Source of the DNA: Anaerolineales bacterium UBA3905
GTDB lineage: Bacteria > Chloroflexota > Anaerolineae > Caldilineales > Caldilineaceae
Direction of reading: 5' to 3'
NCBI GenBank assembly: GCA_002391565.1
Contig: DGFH01000301.1
Location: forward strand, 8,122 to 72,121
Length of the DNA: 64,000 bases
Positions within the stretch are counted from its first letter, which is position 1. Every line of letters starts with the position of its first letter. Positions 24,201-46,401 of the stretch are shown piece after piece. A program made the position numbers and the translations under genes. Below the pieces are notes generated by a model, which worked only from the letters and a program-made list of their open reading frames with translations, did not search any database and was not told the DNA's origin.

Positions 24201-24467
24201 ATTTTGCGCGCCGAAGTCGTCGCCGACGACCCCACACGGGGACAGCCAACAGGCACGGTCGCTTTTCTAGTCGATGGCGTTGTCGTGGGGACCACCGAAC
24301 TGCAGGCCGGACAGGCGGCTATCACACTGAATACGCTTAGCTCAGGCGCGCACCTGGTGGCAGCCGAATATCAAGGCGACGCCCGCTTTAATCCCAGCGG
24401 TTCCAACCCGCTCTTCCATACCGTGGAGAGCAGCAGCTATCTCTATCTGCCCACCGTCGTGCGGTAG
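21219..24467 (+). CDS. Large secreted surface protein: Gly-rich passenger, Ig-like (Big_1, five Big_3_5-like) repeats, YLP tail
   Basis: Signal peptide ending ARAA; VSNPDDAGPGSLRQA; Gly-rich region; five Ig-like repeats; ends YLYLPTVVR. Confidence 0.85.
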   Translation: MYQGWHINKATRPAVRVLLSVLSVIVLLMVQSLRPMPIARAAQFTVSNPDDAGPGSLRQALLDANAAAGADVITFNLPVGATILLASPLPPIYDDLLVAGPGAEQLTISGNHQFRIFTVLGGAVTISGLTLRAGTAQGGAGGAATMAGGGGGGAGLGGALLVHAGAVHLIDVNFDDNQAIGGAGGGGGFGTAGGGAGGGGAGGAGGNGSNTTAFGGGGGGFLGSGGSAGVTFAGGGGGFTGRGGGLEGAAQAIGGGGANNAPGAAGGGSGSAAGSGGGGGSTGIPTASAGADGNSGGGAGGFGGGGGGAAGDSGGDGGDYGGGGGGVNTATADSGGDGGFGGGGGGGIDQGGMGGFGGGGGGAGYGAGAGGGTHGGAGIGPNGGGGAGLGGALFVRSGRVTMANVRFTGNSAMGGAGAGSSERGQGKGGAIYALDGSTLIGVDGAPFFADNTAQDAGGDAHDNADWYGAMSTVAGNVAAKSGSAQSAFVGETFGAPLQAEITIGGAAAPFAPVRFTVIPSNGAGATFPGGATAVVVFADAAGVATTPPLTANGSVGSFTVSAAVAGVNSVGHFVLLNRGRTTMSVTSAPSESVFGQEVVFTAQVTPTAPATGAPGGMILFKDGDATLGTVTLVNGVATLRSHGLAVGDHAVTALYLGSSIFAASEAPVYIHRVNKADTATILTINPATTVFGQALTLSTSVHTQAPGAGTPGGIVTFRQGDAVLGSVTLVNGAATYSIGGLAVGAHNITAEYGGSVRYNGSTSAPATHTIDKAATTTTLQIAPNPAIIGDTVSFTATVTVGAPGSGAPDGQVIFTDGGAALGVSPVVNGVATLNTATLDVGSHTIMAQYAGGSNFAASTSAPVAQVVKRKTLVTLKITPNPVKVDQAVIIDVRVQDTPPGIDVQAAGVNLAAPSGAVEIVDSAGAILATIPLQEGAGSITTTLPGGVHQLVARYPGDDLYGGGASPVVTQNVQRYRSVTTLGRSANSTSLGQALILRAEVVADDPTRGQPTGTVAFLVDGVVVGTTELQAGQAAITLNTLSSGAHLVAAEYQGDARFNPSGSNPLFHTVESSSYLYLPTVVR

Positions 24468-24643
24468 GCAGGCACATCGGTTAACAATCGGTTCATGGCA
24501 GACGACGGCCCGACGCCACGGCGCAGCGGGCCGTCGTTTACTTCTGGCGTTCTGCAATCTCTCTCTTTGCGTGAATTTGATGCGTCCTGAGTACAATAAG
24601 GCGCATTCAGCCGATTCGCCCGTGAGTTCAGGTACAAAGGTGT

Positions 24644-26047
<1,404 letters not shown>

Positions 26048-26065
26048 CACACACGCAGCCCTCTA

Positions 26066-26131
26066 TTATCTTCCCGGAAGCTTTGGAGCTTCCGGGAAGA
26101 TTGCGAGCAACATCACGCGACAACCTAGAAA
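26066..26131 (+). repeat. REP/MITE-like element, copy 1 (15-bp-arm palindrome plus 30-nt tail)
   Basis: ATCTTCCCGGAAGCT-TTGG-AGCTTCCGGGAAGAT then TGCGAGCAACATCACGCGACAACCTAGAAA; second copy at 30592-30657. Confidence 0.9.
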
Positions 26132-26223
26132 ACCAACAACGCAAAGCAATGTCGTCATTTCCGGTTGTTTTGCCCTGCGCGCCTCAGCGTCTTCGCGGCC
26201 TGGCGTCGGTGAGAGTCAAGCGC

Positions 26224-27237
26224 CTACGCGTCGTGCTCCTGTTCGGGCGTTACAACGCGCAACAACACGGCGTCTTCAGTTGCGCTAAGCTGATACTCAC
26301 CCAGTTCGGCAGGGAGCAGCACCCACTGCACGGCTGTGAGTGTTAACGGTGCGGCGTCGGAGGTAAGCATCGCCTCCCCCTGCAACACGGCCCAAATCTC
26401 AAAGGTGGAGCCATCGCACAAGCCGTAGAATTCGTGACCGGCGGGCAGGAAGATGCGTTCCGTCTCGAAATAGGGACAGGTCACCAGACGCTCGATGCGC
26501 ACCCCCTCTTCATCGAGCAGGAGCGTTGGTTTTGTCGGTTCAGGCGCCACCAGGTCGAAGTTGAGCACGTCGAGCGATTTTTCCAGATGCAACGGGCGCG
26601 GGCGACCCCAATCCCAGATGCGATAGGTTGTATCGCTGTTCTGCTGAATCTCGGCAACCATGATGCCCGGTCCCAGCGCGTGAATCGTGCCTGCCGGGAC
26701 GAAGATCACATCTCCCGGCTTGACCGCCACGCGGTGCAGCCCGTCCACGCTGGCATCCGCACCAATGATCGCGGCGTAGCGCTCACGCGTCATGCCGGGC
26801 GCAAAGCCGTAGATCAGCTCGGCGCCCGGCTCGGCGTGCAGCACCACCCACATCTCGGTCTTGCCCAGTTCGCCTTCGTGCGCCATGCCATAGGCGTCGT
26901 CGGGATGCACCTGGATCGAGAGCCAGCGGTTGGCGTCGAGGATTTTGATCAACAGCGGAAACTTGCCCGCCGTCAGCGAAGCCGCGTTGCGTTCGCCGAG
27001 CAGCGCTTCACCCAACAGTTCCTGCACTTCGGGCAGCGTCTTGCCCTTGAGCGGCCCGGTGTTGACCACGCTCGATCCGTTCGGGTGCGCAGCGATCTCC
27101 CAGCTCTCCGCCACGATGCCATCCGGGATCGTGCGCCCCAGTTTTGTCTCCAAATTGCGACCACCCCACGGGTAATCCTTGAAGACCGGGTCAAAGGTCA
27201 GCGGATAGATCATGTCACTGGTTACGCCGTCGCTCAT
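26224..27237 (-). CDS. manA: Mannose-6-phosphate isomerase, type I
   Basis: PWGG, ESWE, FPLLIKILDA, LSIQVHP, GKTEMW, GTIHA, EIQQNSDTTYR; GAGGGA RBS before ATG 27237. Confidence 0.9.
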   Translation of the reverse strand: MSDGVTSDMIYPLTFDPVFKDYPWGGRNLETKLGRTIPDGIVAESWEIAAHPNGSSVVNTGPLKGKTLPEVQELLGEALLGERNAASLTAGKFPLLIKILDANRWLSIQVHPDDAYGMAHEGELGKTEMWVVLHAEPGAELIYGFAPGMTRERYAAIIGADASVDGLHRVAVKPGDVIFVPAGTIHALGPGIMVAEIQQNSDTTYRIWDWGRPRPLHLEKSLDVLNFDLVAPEPTKPTLLLDEEGVRIERLVTCPYFETERIFLPAGHEFYGLCDGSTFEIWAVLQGEAMLTSDAAPLTLTAVQWVLLPAELGEYQLSATEDAVLLRVVTPEQEHDA

Positions 27238-27386
27238 GGTAATTTGTCCCTCAACCTGGTTTTGCACACTCCAATCGTGGTTGCTGTCGGCAACAGAAGA
27301 AGTATGCCACAAAGGGATCAATCCCATGATACGCAAAGATGTTGCGATTGGCGCTAAGGAGTCCTTTCAGGGCGATGTCATCATCT

Positions 27387-29090
27387 TTACTGGAGTGTTG
27401 GATGGCGCAGAAAATCCAGGTCGGCGCCCAGGTTCGCTTGCTGGCAGTGACGCAAATAGAGCGCTTCATAGCCGCGCAATGCTGAGGCGGCTGGCGGTGA
27501 GAATTCCGCACGGCGTCGCGCCAGCTCGGCATCTGATACGCGCAAGGTAAGTTCACGGCGGTCGCTGTTAAGTTCAATCAAATCGCCAGTGCGGACGAGC
27601 GCAAGCGGGCCTCCCACCGCCGCTTCTGGCGCGACATGCAGTACAACAGTGCCAAAGGCCGTGCCACTCATGCGCGCGTCAGAGATGCGCACCATATCGG
27701 TGACGCCAGCAGCCGCCAGCTTCTTGGGGATCGGCAGGTAACCGGCCTCTGGCATCCCCGGCCCACCCAGTGGGCCCGCGTTTTGCAGCACCAGAAAATC
27801 GTCGGGGGTTACGTCCAACTCTGGGCTGTCGATGCGCGCGGCGATGTCCGCCAGGGAAGTGAAGACGACGGCGCGCCCCACCTTGTTGAGCAAGGCAGGC
27901 GTCGCCGCGCCGCGTTTGAGCAGCGCGCCGTCCGGCGCCAGGTTTCCCTTGAGCACGATCAGCCCGCCTTTGGGTTGAAGTGGCGCAGAAGCCGGGTAAA
28001 TCACCTGTTGCCAGGTTGGGAAGGTGTAAGGTTCGTCCAGCAGTTCGCCCAGCGTCTGCCCGGTGACGGTCAACACATCCAGGTGTAAAAGATGCTTGAT
28101 CTCGTTCAGCACGACGCGCATGCCACCGGCGCGGTGGAAATCTTCCATATAACCCGATCCGGTGGGCTTCAAGTCGACCAGCACCGGCGTTGTATCTGCA
28201 ATCTCGTTCAGACGTTGGAGGTCGAGTTTGACGCCCAGGCGCCCGGCGATTGCCGTCAGGTGAATGATGGCATTGGTGGAACCGCCAATCGCCTGCAACA
28301 CGTATAAGGCATTTTCAAACGCGGCGGGCGTCATGATTTTGTCTGGCGTCAAGCCTAGGCGAAGCAACGTCATCGCCTGTTTGCCCGATTCCTCGGCATT
28401 GCGCATACGGTCGGCATAGACGGCGGGAATCGACGCGCCGCCCGGCAGCATCATGCCAAGCGCCTCGACGACGCAGGCCATTGTACTGGCGGTGCCCATG
28501 ACGCTGCAGGTGCCCGGCGTCGGGGCAAGCTGACCCTCCACGGTGTCGATGGCGACCTGGTCGATCTCGTTGCGTCGAAAGCGCGCCCAGAAGCGCCGAC
28601 AATCTGTACACGCACCCAGTCGTTCACCTTGATACTGACTGGTCAGCATCGGCCCGGCTGCAACGACAATGGCGGGCAAGCCAGCGCTGGCCGCCCCCAT
28701 GAGCAGGGCAGGCAGCGTCTTGTCGCAGCCGCCTGTCAACACGACTGCGTCGAGTGGTTGGGCGCGCAGCATCGACTCCACATCCATCGCCATCAAGTTG
28801 CGATAGAGCATACTGGTGGGTGAGAGAAATACTTCACCCAACGAAATGGTGGGAAATTCCAGCGGCAGCCCGCCTGCCTGCCAGACTCCACGTTTGACAG
28901 CATCCACCAACTGCGGAAAGTGGCGATGACAATTGTTGAGTTCGCTGTAGGTGTTGAGAATCCCTACAATCGGCTTGCGCAACGCTTCGCTGCTGAAACC
29001 CATTGCCCGTGCAAATGAACGGCGCAAGTAAAGGGCGAACTCCCGATCTCCGTACTCAGTCAGATTATTGGCCAGGCCGTGCGCGGTCAT
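27387..29090 (-). CDS. IlvD/Edd family dehydratase (sugar-acid dehydratase-like)
   Basis: NNCH, GGCDKT, GTCSVMGTASTM, GGSTNA, SDARMSGT, HVAPEAAVGGP. Confidence 0.9.
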   Translation of the reverse strand: MTAHGLANNLTEYGDREFALYLRRSFARAMGFSSEALRKPIVGILNTYSELNNCHRHFPQLVDAVKRGVWQAGGLPLEFPTISLGEVFLSPTSMLYRNLMAMDVESMLRAQPLDAVVLTGGCDKTLPALLMGAASAGLPAIVVAAGPMLTSQYQGERLGACTDCRRFWARFRRNEIDQVAIDTVEGQLAPTPGTCSVMGTASTMACVVEALGMMLPGGASIPAVYADRMRNAEESGKQAMTLLRLGLTPDKIMTPAAFENALYVLQAIGGSTNAIIHLTAIAGRLGVKLDLQRLNEIADTTPVLVDLKPTGSGYMEDFHRAGGMRVVLNEIKHLLHLDVLTVTGQTLGELLDEPYTFPTWQQVIYPASAPLQPKGGLIVLKGNLAPDGALLKRGAATPALLNKVGRAVVFTSLADIAARIDSPELDVTPDDFLVLQNAGPLGGPGMPEAGYLPIPKKLAAAGVTDMVRISDARMSGTAFGTVVLHVAPEAAVGGPLALVRTGDLIELNSDRRELTLRVSDAELARRRAEFSPPAASALRGYEALYLRHCQQANLGADLDFLRHPTLQ

Positions 29091-29100
29091 GCGTTTTCCG

Positions 29101-30537
29101 TTACCCTTCGATGGCCATGGAAACGAACTTAATTTCCATGTATTCATGCAGACCTTCCTGCGCGCCCTCGCGCCCGAAGCCGCTCTGTTTGACGCCGCCA
29201 AAGGGCGCCTCGGCGGTGGCAGGCGTCATGTCATTGACGCCAATGATGCCAAACTTCAGGCCTTCATAGGCGCGAATCGCCGTCCGCAGGTCGTTGGTGA
29301 GCACATAAGCCGCCAGTCCATAGGGCGTGTTGTTTGCCTGCGCCAATGCCGATGCCATGTCATCGAATGAATTGAGCAGCATCACCGGGCCAAAGGTCTC
29401 TTCCTGCATCACGCGCATCTGCGGCGCCAGATTGGTTAGCAACGTTGGGGCATAGAAGAAACCGCGCGCTCTGCCTGGCGGCGGCGCGCCGCCAGTGAGC
29501 ACCTGCGCTCCCCGCTCAACCGCATCGGCCACAAAATCGGCAATGCGCGTACGCGCGGCGGCAGAGACCAGCGGGCCGGTCGTCACCTGCGGGTCTAACC
29601 CAGGCCCCACCACCAGATTCTCAACAATCGCCCGGCTGGCGGCAATGAAGTCATCTTCGATCGCCCGATGCACATAGAAGCGACTCGGCGAAATGCAGAC
29701 CTGGCCGTTGTTACGGAACTTGGCGGCGACAGCAATTTTGGCGACCGCCTCCACGTCCACGTCGGGAAAGACAAGGACGGGCGCGCTGCCGCCCAGTTCA
29801 AGTGAGAGGCGTTTGATGCCCTCGGCAGCGTTGCGCATGAGCAGCCTGCCAACTGCCTGCGACCCGGTAAAGGAGAGCTTGTCCACCTGCGGCGAACGCA
29901 GGAAGACTTCGCCGATCGGTGCAGGCTGACCGTTGACCAGATTGAGCACACCAGGCGGCATTCCTGCCTCCTCGAGCAGGTTGACCAGCGCCATTGCGCT
30001 CATCGGCGTCAACTCGCTGGGGCGCGCCACAACCGTGCAGCCGGCAGCCAGCGCCCCCGACCATTTGCGCGCAGGCAAGTAGGCCGGGAAATTCCAGGCG
30101 GTAATCGTGGCAACGACGCCAACGGGCATGGGAATGGCAAGCAGCCGCTTGTGGCCGCGGCGGGGCGGAATGGTGCGGCCGTAGGCGCGCTTGCCTTCCT
30201 CGGCAAACCAGTCGAAAAGGTCGGCGCACGCTGTCCACTCGCCGCGCGCCTCGGCCAGGGGCTTGCCACATTCGCGCGTCATGATCGGCGCCAGCTCATC
30301 CAGCCGACTGTAGATCAGATCGGCGACGCGCCGCAGGATGGCGCCGCGTTCGTAGGCGGTCATCGCCGCCCACTTTGGCTGCGCCGCTGCTGCTGCTGCA
30401 ATTGCAGCCTCGGCGTCAGCGGCATCGCCAAAGGGCACGTCCAGAATCGCGGCTTCCGTAGCCGGATCGATCACGGTCCAGGTTGCACCACTCTGGGCGT
30501 CCACCCACCGACCATTGATATATTGTTTGTAGTTCAT
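29101..30537 (-). CDS. NAD(P)-dependent aldehyde dehydrogenase (GabD/SSADH-like)
   Basis: ITAWNFP, SFTGS, LELGG, GQVC, EETFGP, FGGVKQSGFGRE; start may be 30537 or 30558. Confidence 0.92.
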   Translation of the reverse strand: MNYKQYINGRWVDAQSGATWTVIDPATEAAILDVPFGDAADAEAAIAAAAAAQPKWAAMTAYERGAILRRVADLIYSRLDELAPIMTRECGKPLAEARGEWTACADLFDWFAEEGKRAYGRTIPPRRGHKRLLAIPMPVGVVATITAWNFPAYLPARKWSGALAAGCTVVARPSELTPMSAMALVNLLEEAGMPPGVLNLVNGQPAPIGEVFLRSPQVDKLSFTGSQAVGRLLMRNAAEGIKRLSLELGGSAPVLVFPDVDVEAVAKIAVAAKFRNNGQVCISPSRFYVHRAIEDDFIAASRAIVENLVVGPGLDPQVTTGPLVSAAARTRIADFVADAVERGAQVLTGGAPPPGRARGFFYAPTLLTNLAPQMRVMQEETFGPVMLLNSFDDMASALAQANNTPYGLAAYVLTNDLRTAIRAYEGLKFGIIGVNDMTPATAEAPFGGVKQSGFGREGAQEGLHEYMEIKFVSMAIEG

Positions 30538-30591
30538 GACCAGACTCTCTTTTTCCATTGGCAGCACGCGCCAGCTTCAGAAAGATATCGA

Positions 30592-30657
30592 TTTCTAGGT
30601 TGTCACGTGATATTGCTCGCAATCTTCCCGGAAGCTTTGGAGCTTCCGGGAAGATAA
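30592..30657 (-). repeat. REP/MITE-like element, copy 2 (inverted relative to copy 1)
   Basis: Same 15-bp-arm palindrome at 30622-30655; tail reverse-complement matches copy 1 at 28 of 30 nt. Confidence 0.9.
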
Positions 30658-30705
30658 ACAGTTAACCTAGCGGTCAGTAGTATATGCTGTGCAACGTGGC
30701 ATCCA

Positions 30706-32514
30706 CTAGATGACCTCTTCGCTGCGTTCGCGTTCGTAGACGGCGCGCTTGTCGCCCAGATACTCAGGCGCCGGCACATCCCACCAGCCCGGCGCCTGAC
30801 CGCCCGAAGCGCCATGCTGCATGTCGATCATGACCTCCACCACGGCCGGACGGTTTGCCGCCAGCGCCTCGGCAATGGCTTCAGCCACATCGGCGGCGGC
30901 GGTGACGCGGCGGCTGTGGGCGCCAAATGCCGCGGCGATGTCGGCGATGTGCGGCGAAATGGGGTGATCATCTTGCTCGAACATGACGCCATAATTCGCC
31001 TGGTCGCCAAAGACGATCTGCTGTAGATCGCGGATTGCCTGCCAGCCTTGATTGTTGAACACGATGGCAACCACCGGGATATCGTACTGCACGGCGGTGG
31101 CTATCTCTTGAATCGTCATCAGGAAATCACCGTCGCCGACCAGCGCCACGACCGGGGCGTCTGCTCGCGCCAGGCGCGCGCCCAGCGCGGCCGGATAGGC
31201 CCAGCCCATTGTACTGAAACCGCCTGCGGAGATGTAGGTGCGCGGCAGCGTGAACGCCATTTCCTGGAAGACCTGCGCCTGGATATTGCCTGACGACGTG
31301 AAAACAATGGTTTGCGGCGGCAAGACGCGGCGCGCCTCAGCGATCACGCGGCCCATGGTGGGCGGGTTCGCCGTCGAGGTGGCCTGGGCGCGGAAAGTTG
31401 CCTGCCACTGGCTGACAACGTGTGCGATCTCCACTGTGTAGGGACTTGCCTGCCAAGCGCGCGGCGGGGTCAATGCCGCCAATTCCCGTAGCAGGTCGCG
31501 CAGCACAGCGCGTGCATCCCCCACGATGCCGACTGTCGCCGGATAGTTCTTGCCGATCTCGAAGGGATCGATATCGACATGGATCAGTTGCGTTGGAGGG
31601 ATGTTGAAGGCGTAGCCAGGACGGTAAGACGAAGTCGCTTTATCGGCAAAGCGCACACCAACCGCCAGAATGACATCGGCCTGCGTCGTGAGGTGGTTGC
31701 CACAGGTTGTGCCGTTGCTGCCCATATGCCAGCCGTACAGCGGGTGATCTTCCGGGAACGCGCCTTTGCCTTGCATGGTGCTGACCACAGCCGCCCCGAC
31801 ATGCTCGGCGAGCTGACGCACCTCCGCCTCCGCCTGGGCAATTACAACGCCGCCACCGACCAGGATGACGGGACGTTGCGCCTGATTGAGCAGGGCAGCC
31901 GCCTGGACGATCGCCGCTGGATCACCGGTGGGCGCGCCGCGCGGTCGCCGCGTGGTCGGATCGGGCAGATCGTGTAGATCGACCGACTCGGCCTGCACAT
32001 CCATCGGCAGCGTGATGACCGCCGGGCCGGGGCGTCCGGTCAACATGGCGTTGAAGGCCTGGCTCATGGCGCGCGGCAGTTGTCGCGGCTGATCAATGCG
32101 CCAGGCGCGCTTGACGATGGGATCGAATGTGCGCGGGAGATCCGACCAATATTGACGGTCGATCTCCTGCAGGACGCCTACGCCGCGCATGTAGGTGTGC
32201 GTCTCGCCGACGAGCAGCAGCAGGGGAATCGAATCGACGTAGGCGGTCGCCAGTCCGATGGCGGTGTTGGCGGCGCCTGCCCCGATCGACGTGTAGACGG
32301 CTAACGGACGACCGCAGGCGCGGAAGTAGCCATCCGCCATGTGCACGGCCGCCTGTTCGTGGCGCGGCATGATGACCTTGATCGCTTCCTGGCGACGGCG
32401 CAGTGCATCCACCAGCGGCAGATTGCCATGACCAGGAATGCCGATCGCAAATGGCACGCCTTCCCGCACCAACATTTCCACGACAATTTCCGATCCATTC
32501 AGGCGTAGTGACAT
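30706..32514 (-). CDS. ThDP-dependent enzyme (acetolactate synthase/IolD-like superfamily)
   Basis: GIPGHGN, RHEQAA, SIGAGAAN, ThDP motif GDGDF...IVFNN. Confidence 0.88.
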   Translation of the reverse strand: MSLRLNGSEIVVEMLVREGVPFAIGIPGHGNLPLVDALRRRQEAIKVIMPRHEQAAVHMADGYFRACGRPLAVYTSIGAGAANTAIGLATAYVDSIPLLLLVGETHTYMRGVGVLQEIDRQYWSDLPRTFDPIVKRAWRIDQPRQLPRAMSQAFNAMLTGRPGPAVITLPMDVQAESVDLHDLPDPTTRRPRGAPTGDPAAIVQAAALLNQAQRPVILVGGGVVIAQAEAEVRQLAEHVGAAVVSTMQGKGAFPEDHPLYGWHMGSNGTTCGNHLTTQADVILAVGVRFADKATSSYRPGYAFNIPPTQLIHVDIDPFEIGKNYPATVGIVGDARAVLRDLLRELAALTPPRAWQASPYTVEIAHVVSQWQATFRAQATSTANPPTMGRVIAEARRVLPPQTIVFTSSGNIQAQVFQEMAFTLPRTYISAGGFSTMGWAYPAALGARLARADAPVVALVGDGDFLMTIQEIATAVQYDIPVVAIVFNNQGWQAIRDLQQIVFGDQANYGVMFEQDDHPISPHIADIAAAFGAHSRRVTAAADVAEAIAEALAANRPAVVEVMIDMQHGASGGQAPGWWDVPAPEYLGDKRAVYERERSEEVI

Positions 32515-32517
32515 GGT

Positions 32518-33588
32518 TCAGCCTTTCGCAAGCGTGACAGCCTGTCCCAGCCGCGCCGACTCCTGCGCGGCCAGGGCAAAGCGCAGCACCTCCCGCCCTT
32601 GCTCGCCGGTCAAGGACGGGGCGGCGCCGGCAAAATAGGCGTCGATCATGTGGCGCGTCGAGTTGATGAAACTGTGTTCCCAACCCACCGGCATATCAGA
32701 GAAGGTGCGCGTTTGCCGGTCTCGGTAGAGCACCACCGGCGGTGCGTCGAGCATCTTGCCATGGCCGCGCGTCACCCAGATGACGCCCTTGGCGCCGGTG
32801 ATTTCGATGCGGTCGTCCTGGGCGTAGTGCTGCGTATCGAGCACCAACTCAGGCGAGTAGACCACCTCCAGCGCGCCGACGCCGCCATTAGCAAACTTCC
32901 ATGAGATGATGGAAGGTGAGTCCAGGATTGCCCCAGGAAAGACTTCCGTGGCGCCGATCCAGGCGTGCACAGCTTCCGCCTGCCCCATAAAATGCCAGGC
33001 CAAGGCAAACTTATGATGGCCGTCATCGAAGACCAGCGGGCCGCCGCCATTCTGCGCAGGATCAAAGCGCCAGATTTGGGCGGCAAGGGGCACCTGCCAG
33101 GCGTTGGGGCTGGTGGCGGCGTTGCTCTTGATGCGAATCGAAAGCGGTTCGCCAATCTCGCCGGCGTCGACCAGCGCCTTGGCGCGCTGCACGGGCGGAT
33201 AAAAAATGAAATTCTCGAAGACTTTGAACATCACCCCTGCGCGTTGAGTGGCTGCGATCATGGCGTCGGCCTGTTCCACACTCAACGCCATCGGTTTTTG
33301 CACCGAGACGTGTTTCCCTGCCTGCGCAGCATCCAGGACAGCCTGGTAATGCAGATGATGGGGCAGCAGAATTTCCACCAGGTCGACCTCAGGCAGCGCC
33401 AGCAAGTCATGGTAGTTGGTGAAAATAGCATGCGCAGGCACGCCCCACGCACGCCCGCGCGTTTGCGCATTTTCTGCAACCATATCCGCCACGGCCACAA
33501 TCTCGGCGCGTGGGTTGGCAAGATATTCGAGCGCGTGCAGGTCGGAAATGCGACCGGCGCCAATGATTCCGACACGTAGTTTTTCCAT
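32518..33588 (-). CDS. Gfo/Idh/MocA family oxidoreductase
   Basis: IIGAGRIS, LLPHHLH, AGKHVSVQKP, DDGHH. Confidence 0.9.
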   Translation of the reverse strand: MEKLRVGIIGAGRISDLHALEYLANPRAEIVAVADMVAENAQTRGRAWGVPAHAIFTNYHDLLALPEVDLVEILLPHHLHYQAVLDAAQAGKHVSVQKPMALSVEQADAMIAATQRAGVMFKVFENFIFYPPVQRAKALVDAGEIGEPLSIRIKSNAATSPNAWQVPLAAQIWRFDPAQNGGGPLVFDDGHHKFALAWHFMGQAEAVHAWIGATEVFPGAILDSPSIISWKFANGGVGALEVVYSPELVLDTQHYAQDDRIEITGAKGVIWVTRGHGKMLDAPPVVLYRDRQTRTFSDMPVGWEHSFINSTRHMIDAYFAGAAPSLTGEQGREVLRFALAAQESARLGQAVTLAKG

Positions 33589-33632
33589 GTTACAACCTCA
33601 ACGTTTGGTTAGATTACCTTGATTGATGGGTT

Positions 33633-34502
33633 TCATCCCTTCACCGATCCCAGCGTCAAACCGCGAATGAAGTAACGCTGGAAGAAGATGAAGACCAGAA
33701 GCGTGGGAATGCTGGCAATGATCGCCATGGCGCCCTGGACGCCGTACGCCACGCTATACTGCCCTTTGAGCGACGCCAGCCCGACCATGATCGTGCGCAT
33801 CTCGTCCGACTGTGTGAAGATGATCGGCCAGAGGAAGTCGTTCCAAATCCACGTGAACTGCAGCGTAGCCAATACGGCGATCGCTGGCAGGCTCACCGGC
33901 AGCATCACGCGCACCAACACCTGCCATTCGTTGGCGCCATCGATGATGGCTGCCTCACGGATAGCATTGGGCACAGCTGCAAAGAAGTTGCGCATCACCA
34001 GAGTGCAGATCGGAATGCCAAAGGCGGCGTGCACGATGATCATCGGCCAGAGGGTGTCATACAGATGTACGGCATTGAAGAGGCGAAAGAGCGGGATCAA
34101 CACGATTTGTGGGGGATAAAACATGCCCGCAACGACAAAGATAAACAGCGCCTCAGAGCCGCGAAAGCGGAGCTTGCTGAAGACATAGCCGGTCAGGATG
34201 CCTAACAGGATCGAAACAAAGGTGGCTGGGATGGTCACCAGGAACGAGTTGCGCGCATAGACGACCACATTGCCGCCCACCCACGCCTCGGTGAAGTTTG
34301 TGAACCGCAGCGCATCTGGCAACGCCCACAGCCCATCGCGCGCAATCTCCTCAGTGCTCTTGAACGAGGTCAAGACGACGCCGATCACCGGCAGCGAATA
34401 GAGCACGACAAGCGCTGTCAGCACCCCGTAGAAGAGGATGCTGCCAGCCTCCTTGCGTGATTTGGCGGCGACGCCTGTTTGGGTCAAGGTCACATCAGTC
34501 AT
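33633..34502 (-). CDS. Carbohydrate ABC transporter permease (MalG-type)
   Basis: EAAIIDGA loop, WNDFLWP; ATG at 34502 overlaps the upstream stop. Confidence 0.9.
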   Translation of the reverse strand: MTDVTLTQTGVAAKSRKEAGSILFYGVLTALVVLYSLPVIGVVLTSFKSTEEIARDGLWALPDALRFTNFTEAWVGGNVVVYARNSFLVTIPATFVSILLGILTGYVFSKLRFRGSEALFIFVVAGMFYPPQIVLIPLFRLFNAVHLYDTLWPMIIVHAAFGIPICTLVMRNFFAAVPNAIREAAIIDGANEWQVLVRVMLPVSLPAIAVLATLQFTWIWNDFLWPIIFTQSDEMRTIMVGLASLKGQYSVAYGVQGAMAIIASIPTLLVFIFFQRYFIRGLTLGSVKG

Positions 34503-35376: not shown

Positions 35377-35503
35377 GTCCAATCCTCCTGCAAACCATCT
35401 GAGTTGGTGGCGACTACCATAGAGCATAGCCGCCACCGGTGTACGAATGAGCTACAAGCAGTCTTGAGGAGACGCCTGCCGCCGGCAGCTTACTGCGCGT
35501 CTG

Positions 35504-36807: not shown

Positions 36808-36853
36808 AGATCTCCTCCATTGTGATAAAATAGGAAGAAACGGAACGAAAGAA

Positions 36854-36873
36854 ATGTGGTTACGTTTTCACAT
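36854..36873. promoter_or_regulatory. Putative LacI-family operator
   Basis: ATGTGGTTACGTTTTCACAT: central CG, right half CGTTTTCA matches LacI-family TGnAAnCGnTTnCA; just downstream of the operon -10. Confidence 0.65.
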
Positions 36874-36882
36874 CGCCGCCAC

Positions 36883-36911
36883 ATCATAGCGAAATTCACA
36901 GGCAAAGTCAA
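36883..36911 (-). promoter_or_regulatory. Sigma70-type promoter of the sugar operon
   Basis: TTGACT-17 nt-TATGAT on the minus strand. Confidence 0.75.
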
Positions 36912-36931
36912 GCATTATTTCGCATATAATC

Positions 36932-36960
36932 TTGAATAACCGGAAAAATTCAGCTAGAAT
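36932..36960 (+). promoter_or_regulatory. Sigma70-type promoter of the LacI regulator
   Basis: TTGAAT-17 nt-TAGAAT. Confidence 0.7.
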
Positions 36961-37033
36961 CAATATGAAAATTTTGATTTATTTTTTCACATTAAATCAT
37001 CCTGGATGACAATGAGACGAGGCTGACAAGGCA

Positions 37034-38065
37034 ATGCGACGCAAACAGGAAGTCACTATAGTGGATGTTGCAATGGCGGCAGGGTTATCCCCGAGCACAG
37101 TTTCACGCGTGCTCAATCAAAAGGGCTACTACAGCGCCGAGAATGAGCAGAAAGTGAGACATGCCGTCGAGTCACTCGGGTATCGTCCGAGTTGGAGTGC
37201 GCGTTCGCTCAAAGGGGCGCCCACGCGCGTCGTTGGCTTGATCATTCCCGATATTTCGAATGTCTTCTATACGACGTTGGCGGGCGCGCTGCTGGCGAGG
37301 ATGCGCGTCCTGGACTACGATATGATCCTGTGCGTCAACGACGAAAACGCCCAACTTGACTTGAACTACCTGGAAATGCTGCAACAAAAAGGGGTGGATG
37401 GCATCTTCTACACTCACCCGGCGCATGGCAATAACTCTGTCCACGTTCGCCGTCTGGTCGCAGAAGGGCTGCCCATTGTGGAATTAAATCGCCAGCGTGA
37501 GAAGAATTTTCTGGATGCAGTGTTGCCTGACAACTTTCGCGGTGTGCACCAGGCCGTCGAATATCTCGCCAGTTTGGGACATCGGCGCATTGGCTTCATC
37601 AGCGGTTCCGCGGAGATCACCACCGGTCATGAAAGGTTGCTTGGTTATCAGAGCGCTGTGCGGCTGCTAGGACTCGACGACGATCCGGCGCTACTCAAAA
37701 TTGGCGCTTTCACGCGCCAACACGGTGAACAGGCAACGGCAGAACTGCTGGCCCTGCCCAATCGCCCGACAGCGCTGATTGCGGGCAGCAATCGCATCTC
37801 CATGGGCGCCCTTATGGTCATGGGACAGGCGGCAATTCGCATCCCTGACGACATGTCGGTAATCGGCTACAACGACACCGAATGGTTGACTGCCTGGAAT
37901 CCACCGATCACAGCGGTTGATATTGCTGTAGATGAAATGGCGCAGCTTGCTGTAGACTTGCTGCATCGCCGCGTCAGTGGCGGCAACGGCGGCGACGGCA
38001 AGCCTGTCACTTACCACCTGAGTACATCGCTCATTATTCGTCAGTCGTGCCGGAAGATCGGGTGA
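37034..38065 (+). CDS. LacI family transcriptional regulator
   Basis: TIVDVAMAAGLSPSTVSRVLN HTH, hinge ARSLK, periplasmic-binding-fold effector domain. Confidence 0.95.
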   Translation: MRRKQEVTIVDVAMAAGLSPSTVSRVLNQKGYYSAENEQKVRHAVESLGYRPSWSARSLKGAPTRVVGLIIPDISNVFYTTLAGALLARMRVLDYDMILCVNDENAQLDLNYLEMLQQKGVDGIFYTHPAHGNNSVHVRRLVAEGLPIVELNRQREKNFLDAVLPDNFRGVHQAVEYLASLGHRRIGFISGSAEITTGHERLLGYQSAVRLLGLDDDPALLKIGAFTRQHGEQATAELLALPNRPTALIAGSNRISMGALMVMGQAAIRIPDDMSVIGYNDTEWLTAWNPPITAVDIAVDEMAQLAVDLLHRRVSGGNGGDGKPVTYHLSTSLIIRQSCRKIG

Positions 38066-38238
38066 CGATCGTCAAGCCGATCTGACCGGCGCAACGTCAG
38101 CTATCTTCGCCGCGTCGGCGCAGAGAAAGCAAAACGCAATCCTTATATCTGCGCGCTTTGTAGTTTTGCCTCTGCACATCTCTGCGCCTGAGCGTCGGAG
38201 TTTGTACTCTTCAATCTGTCTCTTCGCCCAGACAACCC

Positions 38239-39753
<1,515 letters not shown>

Positions 39754-40137
39754 GTGGACACCTCTTCGTCGTCCATTCGATGGTGATTCATTGCCGCAGC
39801 CTTGGAGCAAGGCGGATTCGATGGCTGTCATCTTATCGCAGGCGGATGCTGATAGCAAAGCCCCATCCCTTTCCGGGCGTCGTTCCTGTTCAGCGCAACT
39901 TACATCCATAGCAACATTGCTCCACCAATTTATCTAACCTTTTCTGGAAGAAACCACTGTCACATGGTGCTACCATCGTAAGCTGGCATCGATGTTCAAC
40001 GCCACGGGATGACCCAGACGCAACATTCATCTTGATTCGGTTTTGATTTCGGTTTGATGAGCGTTCAAGCTGACTTGCATACCATCATGACAACGAATGT
40101 TTTCATCTTCACTTCTTCTGCTCATGGAGAAATGTCT

Positions 40138-43100
40138 ATGCAATCGAATACAGCAACCAGACGGAAATTCACAGGGCTGAGTATCCTCACGCTGCTGGTG
40201 ATGCTGACCGCAGCGACGATAGCGCCAGCCACGACTCAGGCGCAAGGCGGCGCTCCGGTGCTGGCGTTGTCGCATAGCGTCAGCCAGGAGCCATTGCTTA
40301 GCGGGCAAGTGGCCTTCACGTTAAACGTGCGCAACAACGGCGCCGTCGCTGTGACCGATCGCGGCTACAACCTGACCATCACCGACACCTTGCCCGTTGG
40401 CCTCACCTATGTCAGCGCCGATCCGGCGCCCACCAACGTCACCCGCCAGGCGGACGGCGCAACCGCGTTGACGTGGGATAACATCGCCGACCTGGAGGCC
40501 GGCGAAAGCCTGAGCATCAACATAATCGCTTCCCTGGCGAACACGGTGACGGTCGCCAACGACATGGTGAACCGCGCTGGCGCCAAAGTGAACACGATGC
40601 CCGACAACAGCGGCGCCTGGGTGACAGCCTTCAGCGAGTTGTCCACGCGCCCACAGGCGATCGACATCGAAGCCAGCATTCTGCAATCCACCGCCGACGA
40701 ACAGGCGACGGGCGCCGGTGAATATGCTACGGCGCCAGGTCAGAAAGCTGGCGCGGATTGGCCCTTCCAGGTGCGGGTCACTGTACGTAATAACAATGTG
40801 GGCGCAACCAGCAACGTCGTCGCGCGCGTCACGCTGCCAGCAGGTCTGGCTTATCTGGGCAATGTCACAATCAGCCCGAACCCGAACAGTGTCTCAACCA
40901 CACCGACGCTGACGCGCAAACCGGGCGGTGCGCTGGAGCTAAGCTGGGCGCTGGGCAACCTCACGACCGCACAATACGCCACCCCGCTTGTGATCACCTT
41001 CCAAACTGCCATTCCTTACCGCTATCGCAGCAACGCAGATACTGCAGCGGGCGCCGGCCCCTATGCCGGGCCAATGAGTGGCGAGATCATCCCGGAAGAT
41101 GCAGTAATGGCGGTGCTCTATGAAGCCAGTGGCGCCTACGCCAACGCTCCGACGGCGGATGGCTCAGAATCGACGCCAGACGACGACCCGCCTGCGCAGA
41201 CGACCGCCGAGATCATGACGGTGGACAAGAACGCCTCACCCACCACCGTCGGCATCGGCACGGAAGTCACCTTCTCACTCACCTACTACGTCTCCGAGTA
41301 CTACACCGTCACCAATGCCTCGCTGGTGGATGTCCTGCCCGATGGGATGATTTACGTCGATGGCAGCGCCAACCTGACGCCGGTCAGCGTGACGCCGGGC
41401 TTGCCGGGCGCCGGTCAGACCACCATCGTCTGGGCGCTGCCCGCCGAAGCAACGACGCCGGGCGCCAGCGCCGCCGTCACCTTCCGTGCACTGGTCGACA
41501 CCACCTACGAGGCGGCGCCGCTCACCGGTCAACCCATCGTCTCCGGCGACAGCCTGACCAACCGCGTCACCCTCAGCGGCGACTGGGCGGATGCAGTGAC
41601 AGCGGAGCGGCTGGGCGCGTTGACGCCCGATGTCGCTTCCGCCACGGTCAACACACGCATGCCGGGCTTCAATAAGGAGGTCTTCAACCCGTTGACGCAG
41701 CAATGGGGGAGCAGCGTCGACGCCTATGTCGGCGACACCGTGACCTTCCGCCTGACCTACGCCAGCGCCGCCGACATCGACGCCAGGAACATCATCATCC
41801 GCGACTTCCTGCCGCGCGGCATGACCTACATCGACGGCAGCGCCACGCACACCGTCAACGGGACATTCAGCAACGGAAGCAGCTGCACTGCCGCGCCACA
41901 GTCGCCCACAGTGGGCACGCTGGGCGGGCTGCAATATCTGGAGTGGCGGTTGTGCAACGCTGCGCGCGGCGCCACCTGGGAGGCGCAAATTCAGGCGCGC
42001 GTTGGGCCGGAGCCGAACGTACAACCAGGCTGGATCGTCGCCAACTTTGGCAAGCTGAGCGGCGCCAACAGTTACGGCGAGAATTACAGCCTGCGCGCAA
42101 TGGCGATCACCAACTACAAAGCGCCGCGCCTGGTGCTGACCAAAAGCGCCACGCCCAGCAGCAACCTGCAGGCCGGCAGCGTCATCAACTACAGCATTTC
42201 GGTGCTCAACGTTGGAGAAGCCACCGCCTACAATTTGAGTGTAATCGACACCGTGCCAGCGTCGCTGATCATCCCCAACAGCGGCGGCTCCGGGGCGCCC
42301 AACGCTGCCACTTACACAGCCACCGCAGGCGACCCGGCCTCGGGTGCGGGCGGCGTGCTCATCTGGACGACGGTCGGTGCGCTGGCGCCGGGACAGACGC
42401 AGACCTTCACCTACCAGGCAACGGTGGCGGCAGGCTTGCCCGCCGGCGCAGCGCTCAACAACTTGGCGAGTGTGGCGTACAACAGCCGCAGCGATAACCA
42501 GGGACACGCCGTCACCCACAGCAGCAATGTCGATGATGACCAGACCGACGACATCACGGTCTACATCAAGAACCTGACGATTACCAAGACCGGCGCCCGC
42601 GTTGGTGGCGAGGGTGCGGCGGAACAGGTCACCATCGGCGACACCATGCGCTGGACGCTGACCGTCACCGTGCCTACCGGCGTCATCGCCTACTGGCCTG
42701 TCGTCGAGGAAAATGACCTGCCGCCAGGCTTCAACTACGTCGCCGGCAGCCGCGCCATTGCAGGCGCCAGCTTCGACGACGCGCATCACACCGCCAACCC
42801 CAAGATCAGCACGAACCCGACCGACCTGCGCTTTTATCTGAACACGGTCGACAATACGGCGGGGTCAACCCCTTACGTCTTCACGCTGACCTTCGACGCC
42901 ATCGTCACCGGTGTGCGCGCCGACCAGCCGACGACGATTTACTACACCAACAACACGGTGCTCAACGACGCCCTCAACACGACCTACATCGGCTGGTATG
43001 ACTCGATCAACGGCTACAATGGCAGCGGCTACGCCTACGACGCCGGCTTCGAGACCAACCGCATCGATCGCCGCAGCCCGCGTGGACGCTTCACCGCCAA

Positions 43101-46100
43101 AGTGCGCCAGCCCTATCTGACTATCCAGAAGGTGGCGTCCAACAATCGCATCGGCGCAGGTGACATCATTACCTACACAGTGGTGGTGCGCAACCAGGGC
43201 TACGCCAGCGCCTACGACATGAAGCTGCGCGATGTCCTGCCCGCCGATCTGACCTTTATCGGCATCGACTCGACTCAACAACCTGACAATACAACCCTCA
43301 CGCCGACTACCGCCAGTGGCGCTGCCTACGCCTACCTGATCAACCGCCTGGACGCCGGCGCGTCGGTGACGATTGTCTATCGGGCGCAGGTGAACGCCAA
43401 CGTCCCGTCGGACTCATCGCTCACCAACACGGCCTCGGTGGAGAGCTACTCCACCCAGCCCGGCAGCGCCGCCGTCGAACGCAGCTACACCGGCCCGCGC
43501 ACGACGGCCAGCGTCCACACGCCGCAGGGTGGCATCCGCAAGACAGTGACTGCCAATGAACTCACCTACGGCGGCACGCTTGTCTACACTTTGACGGTGC
43601 CAGGCGAACCGATCAACGCCACCATGTACAACGTCGTCGTGACCGATACAGTAGACAGCCGCTTCGAGATTCTCAACGTCGCCAACGGCGCCGTCAACGG
43701 CAATGTTGTAAGCGCTGCATTCGTTGCCATCCCACCGAACACACAGCAGCAGATTGCGATCACCGTGCGTTTACCCGAAAACAGCGTCACTGCCGCCGAC
43801 TACGTGGACGCCACCCCTGCAGAGTTCCGCGATCTCGTGCTGCTTCAGAGCGGCGGGGTCGGTGCAGCGTCACTTGTCGATCCGCTGGCGCCGGGGACGC
43901 TGCTCTACAACCGGGCGTATGTGCACTACGACAAAGGCGGCGTGAAAGGTTCCAACACTGTCTCCAACCGCATCGTGACGCCAGCGCTGGTCGTCGAACA
44001 TCAGGCGGCGCAGATCGAAGCCGCGGCCGGCTCCCTGGTCGACTACACGGTCAGGGTGCACAACGTGGGCAACGGCTACGCCGAGAATCTGCTCCTCGAT
44101 GTGACGCTGCCTGCCAACCTGCAGTTTGAGGTCGGCACAGCAATGCTCGATGGCGCACCCTTTGCCATTGGCGGGTTGACCGGGCTGGCGCTGCCAAATC
44201 TCCCAGGCGAAAGCTCACACATCCTGACCTTCCAGGCGCGTGTGCTTGCCGTCGAGGCGGGCGTTGGCTACCAGAGCACGGCGCACGCCGTTGGCACGGA
44301 CAGCCGCGGCCAGGCCATCGTGGCCGACAACAGCGCCCGCATCCCGGAGGACATCGATCCTGACGACACAGCGACCACGCGCATCTTCGGCCCGCTCGAC
44401 TGGGACAACGCCAGCACCTACGTTGCCTTCGAAGACCTCAAGAACGTTGGCTGGTCAGATTGGGATTACAACGACTTTATCGTGAAGATCGCCGTGGCGC
44501 GCGGCAAGACCAGCGATGGCAACCTGGCCGCCCTGCGACTCGACTATGAAGCCATGGCGCGCGGCGCCTCGTACAATCATCGCTTCCTGCATGGGTTGCC
44601 CATCTACGGCGGCGGCAGCTATGCGCTGGCAGTGCGCAACGCTGATGGACAGGTCATCAGCACACAGAGCGGTGATTTCACCACCGATGAACCGGCCTTT
44701 GCTGTCTTCGAGCGTACGCAACAGGCGCTGCCCTTACAAAGCGGCATCACCGACAACCGCTACAAGCTCTTCACCAACACGGCGCCTATGCAGACCTGGG
44801 TGCAGAAAGGCTACACTGCACAGTTGCAGGTTGTGCTGGCTGACCCGACGCAAAATCTGATCGATGCACTGCCGCCGTTGCCCTGGGATCCCTACCTGGA
44901 GGTCATCAACACCAACCAGACCATCCACCTGGTGCAACCTGGCCACACTGGCAACACGCAGGTGGTCAACAGCAACTGGGACCCGAACAGCCCGTTGATC
45001 GGCTTTGACTTGCCGCTGGCGTATGTCTTTGACACGCGCTGGAAGTGGCCGCAGGAGTTCCTGGGCATCTGGAATGTCTACCCGGATTATGTACAGTACG
45101 AACTCTCGGATGGCTTCACGAACCAGAACTGGTGGGACCCCAATGTTGCCACCACCCACATGGAATACGCCTGGATGGGCGGCGCGCTGGCGGTCATGGC
45201 GGCGCAGCTCAACCAGGTGCAGGCGAACCCATCGCGCTACTACGCGGCGCCAGTGGTCGCCGACCTGGATGGCGACGGCTCGCCCGAAATCATCGTGGGC
45301 AATCTGGTCAAGTGGCAGGTGGAAGTCTACAACAGCAACGGCCGCATGCGCAGCGGCTGGCCGCAACTTCTGCGCAGCGGAGTGAAGACAGCCGCAGGCG
45401 TCGGCGATCTCAACGGCGACGGCAAGCTGGACGTGGTCGTCGGCGATCTGCGCGGCTACCTGCACGCCTTCAACGCCGACGGCACGCGGCTGGCAGGCTG
45501 GAGCAGCCAGGGCGTCAAGCTCGGCGACCGCCCCGATGCGGAGTATCGTTTGCTGGCGCAACCGCAGGTGGTCGATCTGGATCAGAACGGCGCACGTGAG
45601 ATCGTTGTAGCGCTCTCCGACTCCAAGCTTTACGTCTACGAAGCAAACGGCGCCCTGCGCGCCGGCTGGCCTGTCTCGCTAGGCGACGCGCCGGATATCT
45701 ACGGCAGCCATGTCATCGACAGCGCGCCGGTGATCGCCGACATCGACGGTGATGGTCAGCAAGAGATCATCGTTGGCTCCTACGACCACAACCTCTACGT
45801 CTACCGCGCCAACGGTCAACTTGTCTGGAAATATGAGACGCGCGACGTGATCATGAGCACAGCGGCGGTGGGCGATGTGGCGCCCGGCTCCCCCGGTCTG
45901 GAGATCGTGATTGGCTCGGGCGACCGCTTCATCTACTTGCTGAGCAGCAGCGGGCAGTTGCTGTGGAAGCGCGCCACCGGCTGGATCGTGCGTTCGTCGC
46001 CGCTGCTGGTGGACATCGACGGCGACGGTGCGCTGGAGATCGTAGTCGGCAGCGACGACAAGAAGGTCTGGGCATGGCGCAACAACGGCGACCGGCTGAC

Positions 46101-46401
46101 CGGCTGGCCCCAGACCACCGGCGCGGCTGTCTCCTCGTCGCCCATCACCGGCGACGTAGATCACGACGGTCAGCCCGAAATCGTGGTCGGTTCGGACGAT
46201 GGTTATGTCTATGTCTGGAACGCCGATGGTTCGGCGCCGAAGGAGTGGCCGAAGGACGCTGGCTATCCGATCAAGAGCGCGCCGGCTTTGCTAAACGCCG
46301 ACAGTGACGTCGAGTTGGAGGTGGTAGCCGCCACCTACGAGGGTGCAATCAAGATTCTGGGCGGGCCACTGCCAACTTACCTGCCGTTGATCCGGCGGTA
46401 A
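40138..46401 (+). CDS. Giant secreted surface protein: about 9 DUF11/isopeptide Ig-like repeats, LruC/DUF4842-like domain, FG-GAP/VCBS repeats, YLP tail
   Basis: Signal peptide; repeated xxK...V.YT..V.N...DxLP...N; AFEDL...DWDYND; DLDGDG/DLNGDG/DIDGDG repeats; ends TYLPLIRR; GGAG RBS before ATG 40138. Confidence 0.85.
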   Translation: MQSNTATRRKFTGLSILTLLVMLTAATIAPATTQAQGGAPVLALSHSVSQEPLLSGQVAFTLNVRNNGAVAVTDRGYNLTITDTLPVGLTYVSADPAPTNVTRQADGATALTWDNIADLEAGESLSINIIASLANTVTVANDMVNRAGAKVNTMPDNSGAWVTAFSELSTRPQAIDIEASILQSTADEQATGAGEYATAPGQKAGADWPFQVRVTVRNNNVGATSNVVARVTLPAGLAYLGNVTISPNPNSVSTTPTLTRKPGGALELSWALGNLTTAQYATPLVITFQTAIPYRYRSNADTAAGAGPYAGPMSGEIIPEDAVMAVLYEASGAYANAPTADGSESTPDDDPPAQTTAEIMTVDKNASPTTVGIGTEVTFSLTYYVSEYYTVTNASLVDVLPDGMIYVDGSANLTPVSVTPGLPGAGQTTIVWALPAEATTPGASAAVTFRALVDTTYEAAPLTGQPIVSGDSLTNRVTLSGDWADAVTAERLGALTPDVASATVNTRMPGFNKEVFNPLTQQWGSSVDAYVGDTVTFRLTYASAADIDARNIIIRDFLPRGMTYIDGSATHTVNGTFSNGSSCTAAPQSPTVGTLGGLQYLEWRLCNAARGATWEAQIQARVGPEPNVQPGWIVANFGKLSGANSYGENYSLRAMAITNYKAPRLVLTKSATPSSNLQAGSVINYSISVLNVGEATAYNLSVIDTVPASLIIPNSGGSGAPNAATYTATAGDPASGAGGVLIWTTVGALAPGQTQTFTYQATVAAGLPAGAALNNLASVAYNSRSDNQGHAVTHSSNVDDDQTDDITVYIKNLTITKTGARVGGEGAAEQVTIGDTMRWTLTVTVPTGVIAYWPVVEENDLPPGFNYVAGSRAIAGASFDDAHHTANPKISTNPTDLRFYLNTVDNTAGSTPYVFTLTFDAIVTGVRADQPTTIYYTNNTVLNDALNTTYIGWYDSINGYNGSGYAYDAGFETNRIDRRSPRGRFTAKVRQPYLTIQKVASNNRIGAGDIITYTVVVRNQGYASAYDMKLRDVLPADLTFIGIDSTQQPDNTTLTPTTASGAAYAYLINRLDAGASVTIVYRAQVNANVPSDSSLTNTASVESYSTQPGSAAVERSYTGPRTTASVHTPQGGIRKTVTANELTYGGTLVYTLTVPGEPINATMYNVVVTDTVDSRFEILNVANGAVNGNVVSAAFVAIPPNTQQQIAITVRLPENSVTAADYVDATPAEFRDLVLLQSGGVGAASLVDPLAPGTLLYNRAYVHYDKGGVKGSNTVSNRIVTPALVVEHQAAQIEAAAGSLVDYTVRVHNVGNGYAENLLLDVTLPANLQFEVGTAMLDGAPFAIGGLTGLALPNLPGESSHILTFQARVLAVEAGVGYQSTAHAVGTDSRGQAIVADNSARIPEDIDPDDTATTRIFGPLDWDNASTYVAFEDLKNVGWSDWDYNDFIVKIAVARGKTSDGNLAALRLDYEAMARGASYNHRFLHGLPIYGGGSYALAVRNADGQVISTQSGDFTTDEPAFAVFERTQQALPLQSGITDNRYKLFTNTAPMQTWVQKGYTAQLQVVLADPTQNLIDALPPLPWDPYLEVINTNQTIHLVQPGHTGNTQVVNSNWDPNSPLIGFDLPLAYVFDTRWKWPQEFLGIWNVYPDYVQYELSDGFTNQNWWDPNVATTHMEYAWMGGALAVMAAQLNQVQANPSRYYAAPVVADLDGDGSPEIIVGNLVKWQVEVYNSNGRMRSGWPQLLRSGVKTAAGVGDLNGDGKLDVVVGDLRGYLHAFNADGTRLAGWSSQGVKLGDRPDAEYRLLAQPQVVDLDQNGAREIVVALSDSKLYVYEANGALRAGWPVSLGDAPDIYGSHVIDSAPVIADIDGDGQQEIIVGSYDHNLYVYRANGQLVWKYETRDVIMSTAAVGDVAPGSPGLEIVIGSGDRFIYLLSSSGQLLWKRATGWIVRSSPLLVDIDGDGALEIVVGSDDKKVWAWRNNGDRLTGWPQTTGAAVSSSPITGDVDHDGQPEIVVGSDDGYVYVWNADGSAPKEWPKDAGYPIKSAPALLNADSDVELEVVAATYEGAIKILGGPLPTYLPLIRR

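Follow-up and report, generated by a model that had tools for sequence, protein, structure and literature searches.

YLP-box tails on two giant exported proteins of Anaerolineales bacterium UBA3905: new carriers of a catalogued motif and a possible surface-docking peptide of Chloroflexota

In other bacteria the surface export of proteins can be driven by short terminal signals, such as those for lipoprotein export in Bacteroidota and the C-terminal domain of the type IX secretion system (T9SS). The T9SS domain (Por_Secre_tail, PF18962; Bacteroidota) is folded, about 80 residues long and cleaved off. The LPXTG, PEP-CTERM and MYXO-CTERM signals are short C-terminal motifs borne by many unrelated exported proteins per genome, and they are tripartite, being composed of the motif, a membrane helix and a basic cluster. 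The lipobox provides a covalent lipid anchor, while the SLH domain is folded, has about 45 residues per repeat and binds a wall polymer. Closest to the element described here are the NCBIfam families NF050076 (sort_motif_YLP) and NF053834 (ultrashort_CTERM), both named "YLP-box putative sorting motif-containing protein", whose models cover the C-terminal form only and offer no mechanism. Here we describe the YLP-box on two giant exported proteins (P0001 and P0002) encoded by a 64,000-nucleotide stretch of Anaerolineales bacterium UBA3905 DNA (assembly GCA_002391565.1, contig DGFH01000301.1, positions 8,122 to 72,121; the whole stretch is called the window), and follow it through the genome and the phylum. 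The nearest relatives are Chloroflexota metagenome-assembled genomes.

The YLP-box is a linear motif of 7–9 residues on Sec-exported proteins of filamentous Chloroflexota. It consists of a hydrophobic residue, Tyr or Phe, Leu, Pro, a hydrophobic residue, Val or Ile, any residue, and Arg or Lys. The features of the two giants, in window positions, are as follows.

21219–24467, forward strand: gene of the first giant exported protein, P0001 (1082 aa), from the open reading frame and its translation
21219–21341, forward strand: P0001 signal peptide, from the translation and a hydrophobic-segment scan
24438–24464, forward strand: P0001 YLP-box, YLYLPTVVR, from the translation; stop codon 24465–24467
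40138–46401, forward strand: gene of the second giant exported protein, P0002 (2087 aa), from the open reading frame and its translation, the start being that of database protein P0003
40138–40242, forward strand: P0002 signal peptide, MQSNTATRRKFTGLSILTLLVMLTAATIAPATTQA / QG, from the translation and a hydrophobic-segment scan, with a presumed cleavage site
46378–46398, forward strand: P0002 YLP-box, YLPLIRR, from the translation; stop codon 46399–46401

The two proteins are unrelated to each other except for the tail. Each starts with a Sec-type signal peptide, is otherwise free of hydrophobic segments in the same scan, and fits hydrophobic-[YF]-L-P-x-[VI]-x-[RK] at its extreme C-terminus. 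The original prediction had singled out this shared YLPxxxR tail on two otherwise unanchored secreted proteins, and the translations confirm the tails. As to other anchors, neither SLH (PF00395) nor an autotransporter was found in either protein by Pfam and NCBIfam, nor was a T9SS C-terminal domain of about 80 residues (PF18962 or related) by Pfam. An LPXTG signal with a membrane helix is absent as well, there being nothing after the box and no C-terminal hydrophobic segment, and so is the layout of motif, membrane helix and Arg cluster which characterizes PEP-CTERM, MYXO-CTERM and archaeosortase substrates.

P0001 begins with a basic n-region followed by the hydrophobic stretch VLLSVLSVIVLLMV, with likely cleavage, judged by eye, near ARA/AQ. 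A Gly-rich N-terminal half is followed by five Big_3_5 Ig-like repeats (PF16640), the only Pfam matches in the protein, and by the tail, which in translation reads ...SSSYLYLPTVVR up to the stop. Residues 130–470 or so (window 21600–22630) form an extreme Gly-rich low-complexity region with GGxGG runs and no Pfam match. The open frame of P0002 begins at 40054, and the ATG at 40138 is the most likely start, as in the identical database entry P0003. By Pfam and NCBIfam, P0002 contains seven DUF11 or isopeptide-type repeats, LruC/DUF4842 and an FG-GAP beta-propeller, and then the YLP-box tail, ...LPTYLPLIRR; the Thr which the original prediction counted as part of this tail lies one codon upstream of the box (46375–46377).

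Scanned alone, the P0002 tail scores 13.9 bits against NF053834 (above its cut-off of 10) and 13.0 bits against NF050076 (below its cut-off of 15), whereas the P0001 tail scanned in the same way gives no NCBIfam match. One or other model also matches five of eight other tails of the genome, again each scanned alone. Scans of the whole P0001 and P0002 proteins against NCBIfam gave no YLP-box match at E ≤ 0.1, because the NF053834 and NF050076 models are very short. The consensus xYLPLVxR, the extreme C-terminal site, the occurrence on exported proteins and the phylum are all shared between the catalogued families and the tails described here. We take both tails to be instances of the YLP-box, and the two proteins are new carriers of a catalogued and unexplained motif. 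The box itself is neither new nor undescribed, since NCBIfam lists it. In the literature we found no paper using the term "YLP-box" and none pairing Chloroflexi with box peptides.

The genome comprises 5.86 Mb in 391 contigs (60% G+C), for which our own gene call gave 4,740 proteins. Among these, [YF]LPxxx[RK] followed by 0–3 residues closes 61 proteins, where 0.58 would be expected from its internal frequency. The logo of 71 carriers is [LVI][YF]LP[VLTA][VI]xR, which the tails of P0001 and P0002 both match; 49 of the 71 boxes stop exactly at Arg or Lys and the other 22 have 1–3 further residues. A position matrix derived from these boxes found 65 sites in the real proteome and none in the shuffled one at a score of at least 16, and 102 against 15 at a score of at least 12. 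The matrix census places 74 sites at the C-terminus, 13 at the N-terminus (first 110 residues; 8 of them directly behind a signal peptide or anchor) and 15 internally. C-terminal variants which lack the final Arg were also in excess in the census (15 against 4.5 expected). The N-terminal, internal and Arg-less boxes of this genome lie outside the scope of NF050076 and NF053834.

An N-terminal hydrophobic segment is present in 52 of the 71 carriers as against 28% of other proteins (Fisher p = 9e-15), so that the census of C-terminal motifs and the check for signal peptides proposed in the original prediction both came out in its favour. Several of the carriers without such a segment are truncated at a contig end. 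In length the carriers exceed the other proteins (median 790 aa versus 319 aa). The synonymous positions of the box codons vary freely; it is therefore the peptide which is conserved and selected, and not a DNA element. Twenty carriers scanned against Pfam represent a cross-section of the exoproteome with unrelated folds: SBBP, BNR and Kelch propellers, C11, S8 and M10 peptidases, beta-helix, cohesin, cadherin-like repeats, CAP, CBM96, DUF5666 and DUF1501. About 2% of the proteome, or about a hundred exported proteins, carries the YLP-box. A Pro/Thr-rich linker is not a fixed companion of it: the 30 residues before the C-terminal boxes contain 17.7% Pro+Thr versus 10.9%, and are clearly rich in 4 of 61 cases.

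As a rule there is one box per protein. A noted exception is G000:C203:265-5391, a beta-helix-like protein of 1708 aa in which ATYLPMVSR follows the signal peptide and AYLPFVGR closes the chain. Now and then a box is placed between domains. High-scoring internal boxes were seen in G000:C264:13472-17098 (QIFLPLITR, residue 866 of 1208) and G000:C275:2923-5295 (TLYLPMVNR, residue 568 of 790), in which a further domain may recently have been fused onto what had been a C-terminal box. The domains downstream of these two boxes (210–330 aa) were considered as a receptor in cis and rejected, as they have no paralogues in the genome.

The N-terminal boxes lie about 10 residues behind the signal-peptide cleavage site, and are illustrated by a protein of the DNRLRE/CBM96 family (L108; G000:C119:20680-22269) which has ...DNTLFLPVIVRQEPPTPTP... 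behind its signal peptide. Among its closest 120 homologues, 95 (with entries named Roseiflexus castenholzii, Caldilinea and Thermoflexus among them) have an N-terminal box 12–64 residues (median 15) before a conserved RINAP motif. Five lack the N-terminal box and have a C-terminal one instead (e.g. ...RVYLPLLLKTP), about 10 have a lipoprotein cysteine at the place of the box, and three have N-terminal SLH domains by Pfam, with two more having an SLH-like start by eye. The L108 orthologue of genome G250 has only a C-terminal box (NFLPAVQR at the stop), and those of genus g65 have the divergent N-terminal sequences QWLPAIFAP or QWLPVVFGP. These data support an orientation-independent docking of the box; and the lipobox and SLH domains which fill the N-terminal box position would point to the same job, that of holding an exoprotein at the envelope.

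An AlphaFold2 model of the L108 protein, built from 77 family members, has a predicted local distance difference test (pLDDT) score above 90 for residues 100–529 and below 50 for residues 34–96. The latter comprise the box and its linker and are predicted to make no contact with the fold in cis, so the N-terminal box is modelled as part of a disordered tether. The L108 protein, with those of L109–L115, is an unusually conserved exoprotein (62–65% identity to orthologues in another class of the phylum), with about 70 residues invariant across 77 sequences. This conservation suggests a core envelope function.

Both window proteins have homologues which retain the box. Orthologues of P0001 at 63–77% identity end in YLYLPAIVR, HLYLPAIVR or FLYLPRITR. 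Among the best 120 LruC/FG-GAP homologues of P0002, 69 show [YFW][LMFIV]P within their final 16 residues (0.016 expected per protein). These 69 extend down to 31% identity, and entries named Caldilineaceae, Chloroploca, Anaerolineales, Ardenticatenaceae and Promineifilaceae are found among them. The ending of the box drifts: YLPLIRR, FLPLIFK, YLPLITATP, FLPLVMAP, and FLPLIFK with nine more residues. The original prediction was right in ascribing such tails to Chloroflexota proteins. In other phyla the LruC/FG-GAP homologues terminate in the T9SS C-terminal domain (PF18962, present in P0109, P0114 and P0119) or in a membrane helix with a basic tail, and the Big_3_5 homologues of P0001 in MYXO-CTERM or, again, a membrane helix with a basic tail. 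Compared with these homologues, then, the YLP-box occupies the place of accepted sorting signals, which upholds its description as a conserved tail of the sorting type. It differs from the T9SS domain in its size, in that it can be N-terminal and in that it also occurs in genomes without C25 peptidases; and from LPXTG, PEP-CTERM and MYXO-CTERM in having no helix or basic cluster.

We would give even chances to the reading that the YLP-box is a docking or retention peptide which works at either end of a protein and is read by a putative envelope partner. On an exported protein the box would remain accessible in a flexible stretch and bind to a common envelope component (a receptor protein or a polymer of the wall), and the cargo would thereby be held at the cell surface. 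The core peptide, hydrophobic-LP-hydrophobic-hydrophobic, would be recognised in trans, and C-terminal cleavage and transfer of the sortase or PorU type would not take place. We infer docking in trans because the box lies in a disordered segment at one or the other end of the mature protein, usually once per protein and on about 2% of the proteome, and because homologues replace it by a lipid anchor, SLH, a T9SS domain, MYXO-CTERM or a membrane helix. The box is probably not a cleavage signal of the sortase type. Most boxes have nothing behind them which could serve as a leaving group, cleavage at an N-terminal box would release the cargo instead of attaching it, and the box is not tied to a free carboxylate, since 1–3 residues (up to 9 in orthologues) may trail it. 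The original prediction had suggested a dedicated anchoring or processing system by analogy to C-terminal transpeptidase and protease substrates. Its sorting signal finds support here, while the analogy fits poorly with the N-terminal and internal boxes, with boxes which mostly end at the last residue and with the lack of the enzymes in some box-rich genomes.

The distribution of the box was followed in 301 Chloroflexota genomes with two DNA patterns, one for boxes ending in Arg and stop and one for Lys and stop, each with a reversed-pattern control. These strict patterns undercount divergent boxes (the Lys endings took a second scan), so that "box-poor" refers to a lower bound on the number of boxes. 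In the present genome they gave 41 hits versus 3 for the reversed control. The distribution is patchy, the box-rich genomes belonging to several genera of families f18, f34, f55, f4 and f6. With the same patterns, genome G094, of the same family as the present one, and family f2 showed no excess over the control, nor did the small-genome families f24 and f16, except for one borderline f24 genome. A sortase was found in 26 of 30 panel genomes, including the box-poor family f2, and is absent from the box-rich G076, which is a single contig. The exosortase family TIGR04178 occurs in 3 of the 30, including the present genome, and is absent from 13 of the 16 box-rich panel genomes. On this distribution we reject sortase and exosortase as the reader of the box. 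SLH occurs in 8 of the 301 genomes, none of them box-rich, and has no match anywhere in the present genome; it is too rare for any meaningful anti-correlation, and a complementarity of SLH and box was dropped.

C25 peptidases present a different picture. Strong matches (PF01364) were found in 22 of 24 box-rich versus 20 of 277 other genomes (odds ratio 141), a count which is not phylogenetically independent. The present genome has two C25 genes, both of whose products bear box-like tails; among C25 proteins we observed FLPAVQ..., VFLPAMQR and YLPLVLNP. Nevertheless, no C25 homologue was found in genomes G242 (97% complete, in 3 contigs) and G266, even with a C25 protein of the same genus as query, although both bear genuine box tails (10 in G242 and 7 in G266, against none in the controls; one reads ...QQLYLPVIRR). 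We therefore reject C25 as an obligatory enzyme. The profiling for a co-occurring transpeptidase or protease which the original prediction proposed has therefore yielded one co-occurring family, albeit with these two exceptions, and nothing for sortase or exosortase. The known sorting enzymes do not track the box: sortase, exosortase and C25 are each missing from some box-rich genomes.

Several points weigh against docking. The equivalence with anchors is an argument from position in homologues and not a measurement, the gene calls and the signal-peptide test are home-made, and the DNA patterns behind the phylogenetic profile miss divergent boxes such as WLPxxF in genus g65. The C25 association described above, together with the position of one C25 gene of the genome (L119; G000:C83:22558-25839) on contig C83, where two box-tailed giants are encoded about 3.5 kb away, leaves room for an enzymatic step.

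Such a step might consist of a PorU-like C25 peptidase which cuts at or before the box and transfers the cargo to an envelope acceptor, that is, T9SS-like sorting without the T9SS. The best solved relative of the L119 peptidase is indeed PorU (6za2, E = 2.7e-10), and C25 proteins bear box-like tails much as PorU bears its own C-terminal domain. We consider this quite unlikely, given G242 and G266. Moreover, with 49 of 71 boxes ending at the last residue, a cut after the Arg would have no leaving group; a transpeptidase acting on an N-terminal box would attach the signal-peptide stub and free the cargo; and co-occurrence is expected anyway if C25 peptidases are typical cargo. Alternatively, the box might be a signal for translocation through an outer wall or sheath, or a processing site which frees proteins from the membrane. 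The precedent of short export signals in other bacteria, the exchange of the box with the T9SS C-terminal domain in homologues and the N-terminal boxes near the membrane-proximal end of the mature chain all speak for this, yet we rate it as unlikely: the lipobox, SLH and the membrane helix with basic tail, which are pure anchors, replace the box just as often, and nothing could be released at a C-terminal box which ends the chain. No dedicated translocon was found, and to our knowledge none has been described for the box.

It is very improbable that the box, with an LPxxx core, represents a degenerate signal read by sortase or exosortase. Its core does hold L-P and the genome does have two sortase genes and one gene of the exosortase/archaeosortase family, yet neither a membrane helix nor a basic cluster comes after the box, the two enzymes are distributed as described above, N-terminal boxes do not fit, and separate proteins of the genome bear the full signal of MPVTG, helix and RRR. 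Chance, or a last beta-strand of the final domain which has a structural and no sorting role, might be invoked for a hydrophobic-rich motif of merely 7–8 residues. To this we assign a next to negligible probability, in view of the more than 100-fold enrichment at termini, the absence of shuffled hits at the same score, the unrelated folds of the carriers, the movement of the box between N- and C-terminus within one family, and its predicted disorder apart from the fold.

Several further loci deserve mention. The L119 peptidase belongs to a cluster outside the window (G000:C83:9880-28336) which begins with a box-tailed S8 peptidase, a box-tailed protein of 1906 aa and a radical SAM/SPASM enzyme, continues with an exported protein of 571 aa ending LWLPLVTAPE and with the PorU-like C25 peptidase itself, which ends ...FLPAVQASAQEGG, and closes with an NTP_transf_5 protein and a small PqqD-like protein. 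The pair of C25 and NTP_transf_5 recurs in genome G184 (L085). Two modules may be joined in this cluster, one for surface display and one for peptide maturation. The exosortase/archaeosortase-family gene lies at G000:C92:14998-15846 (TIGR04178, E = 1e-18). Two adjacent genes at L120 (G000:C141:1017-3909) end in MPVTG, a hydrophobic helix and RRR; found when C-terminal helices with basic tails were searched for, these are complete sortase-type signals with Met in place of Leu, and the proteins are probably substrates of the two sortases of the genome. A loose LPXTG regular expression found no canonical LPXTG proteins in the genome. In the box-poor family f2 the sortase domains have an unusual architecture, lying inside giant open frames of 2,966–3,620 aa:

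G043:C1:2764960-2765361: sortase domain, family f2
G139:C5:75300-75713: sortase domain, family f2
G112:C21:70436-70837: sortase domain, family f2

In the window itself no operon partner was found beside the P0001 and P0002 genes. Their neighbours are ordinary metabolism genes, namely GGT, UDP-glucose pyrophosphorylase, LacI, aldehyde dehydrogenase, AMP-binding and FAD oxidoreductase.

Returning to the docking peptide, the broader statement would be that the YLP-box represents a new class of surface-sorting signal: a peptide of 7–9 residues, placed at either end or between domains, which acts without a membrane helix, folded domain, lipid or known sorting enzyme, is read by a putative receptor or wall polymer of the Chloroflexota envelope, and holds about 2% of the proteome. 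We advance this tentatively, at somewhat less than even chances. Soils, sediments, hot springs and wastewater sludge all harbour abundant Chloroflexota, whose envelope is unusual. A tag borne by peptidases, glycan-binding proteins and giant adhesins alike is probably the main display route in those lineages which have the box. The search for its partner narrows to receptors which bind a free peptide, and away from a new transpeptidase, because the box is found at either end, replaces anchors of the lipid, SLH, T9SS and exosortase types, and is independent of sortase, exosortase and C25. For annotation, the YLP-box marks those surface proteins which standard predictors would simply label "secreted".

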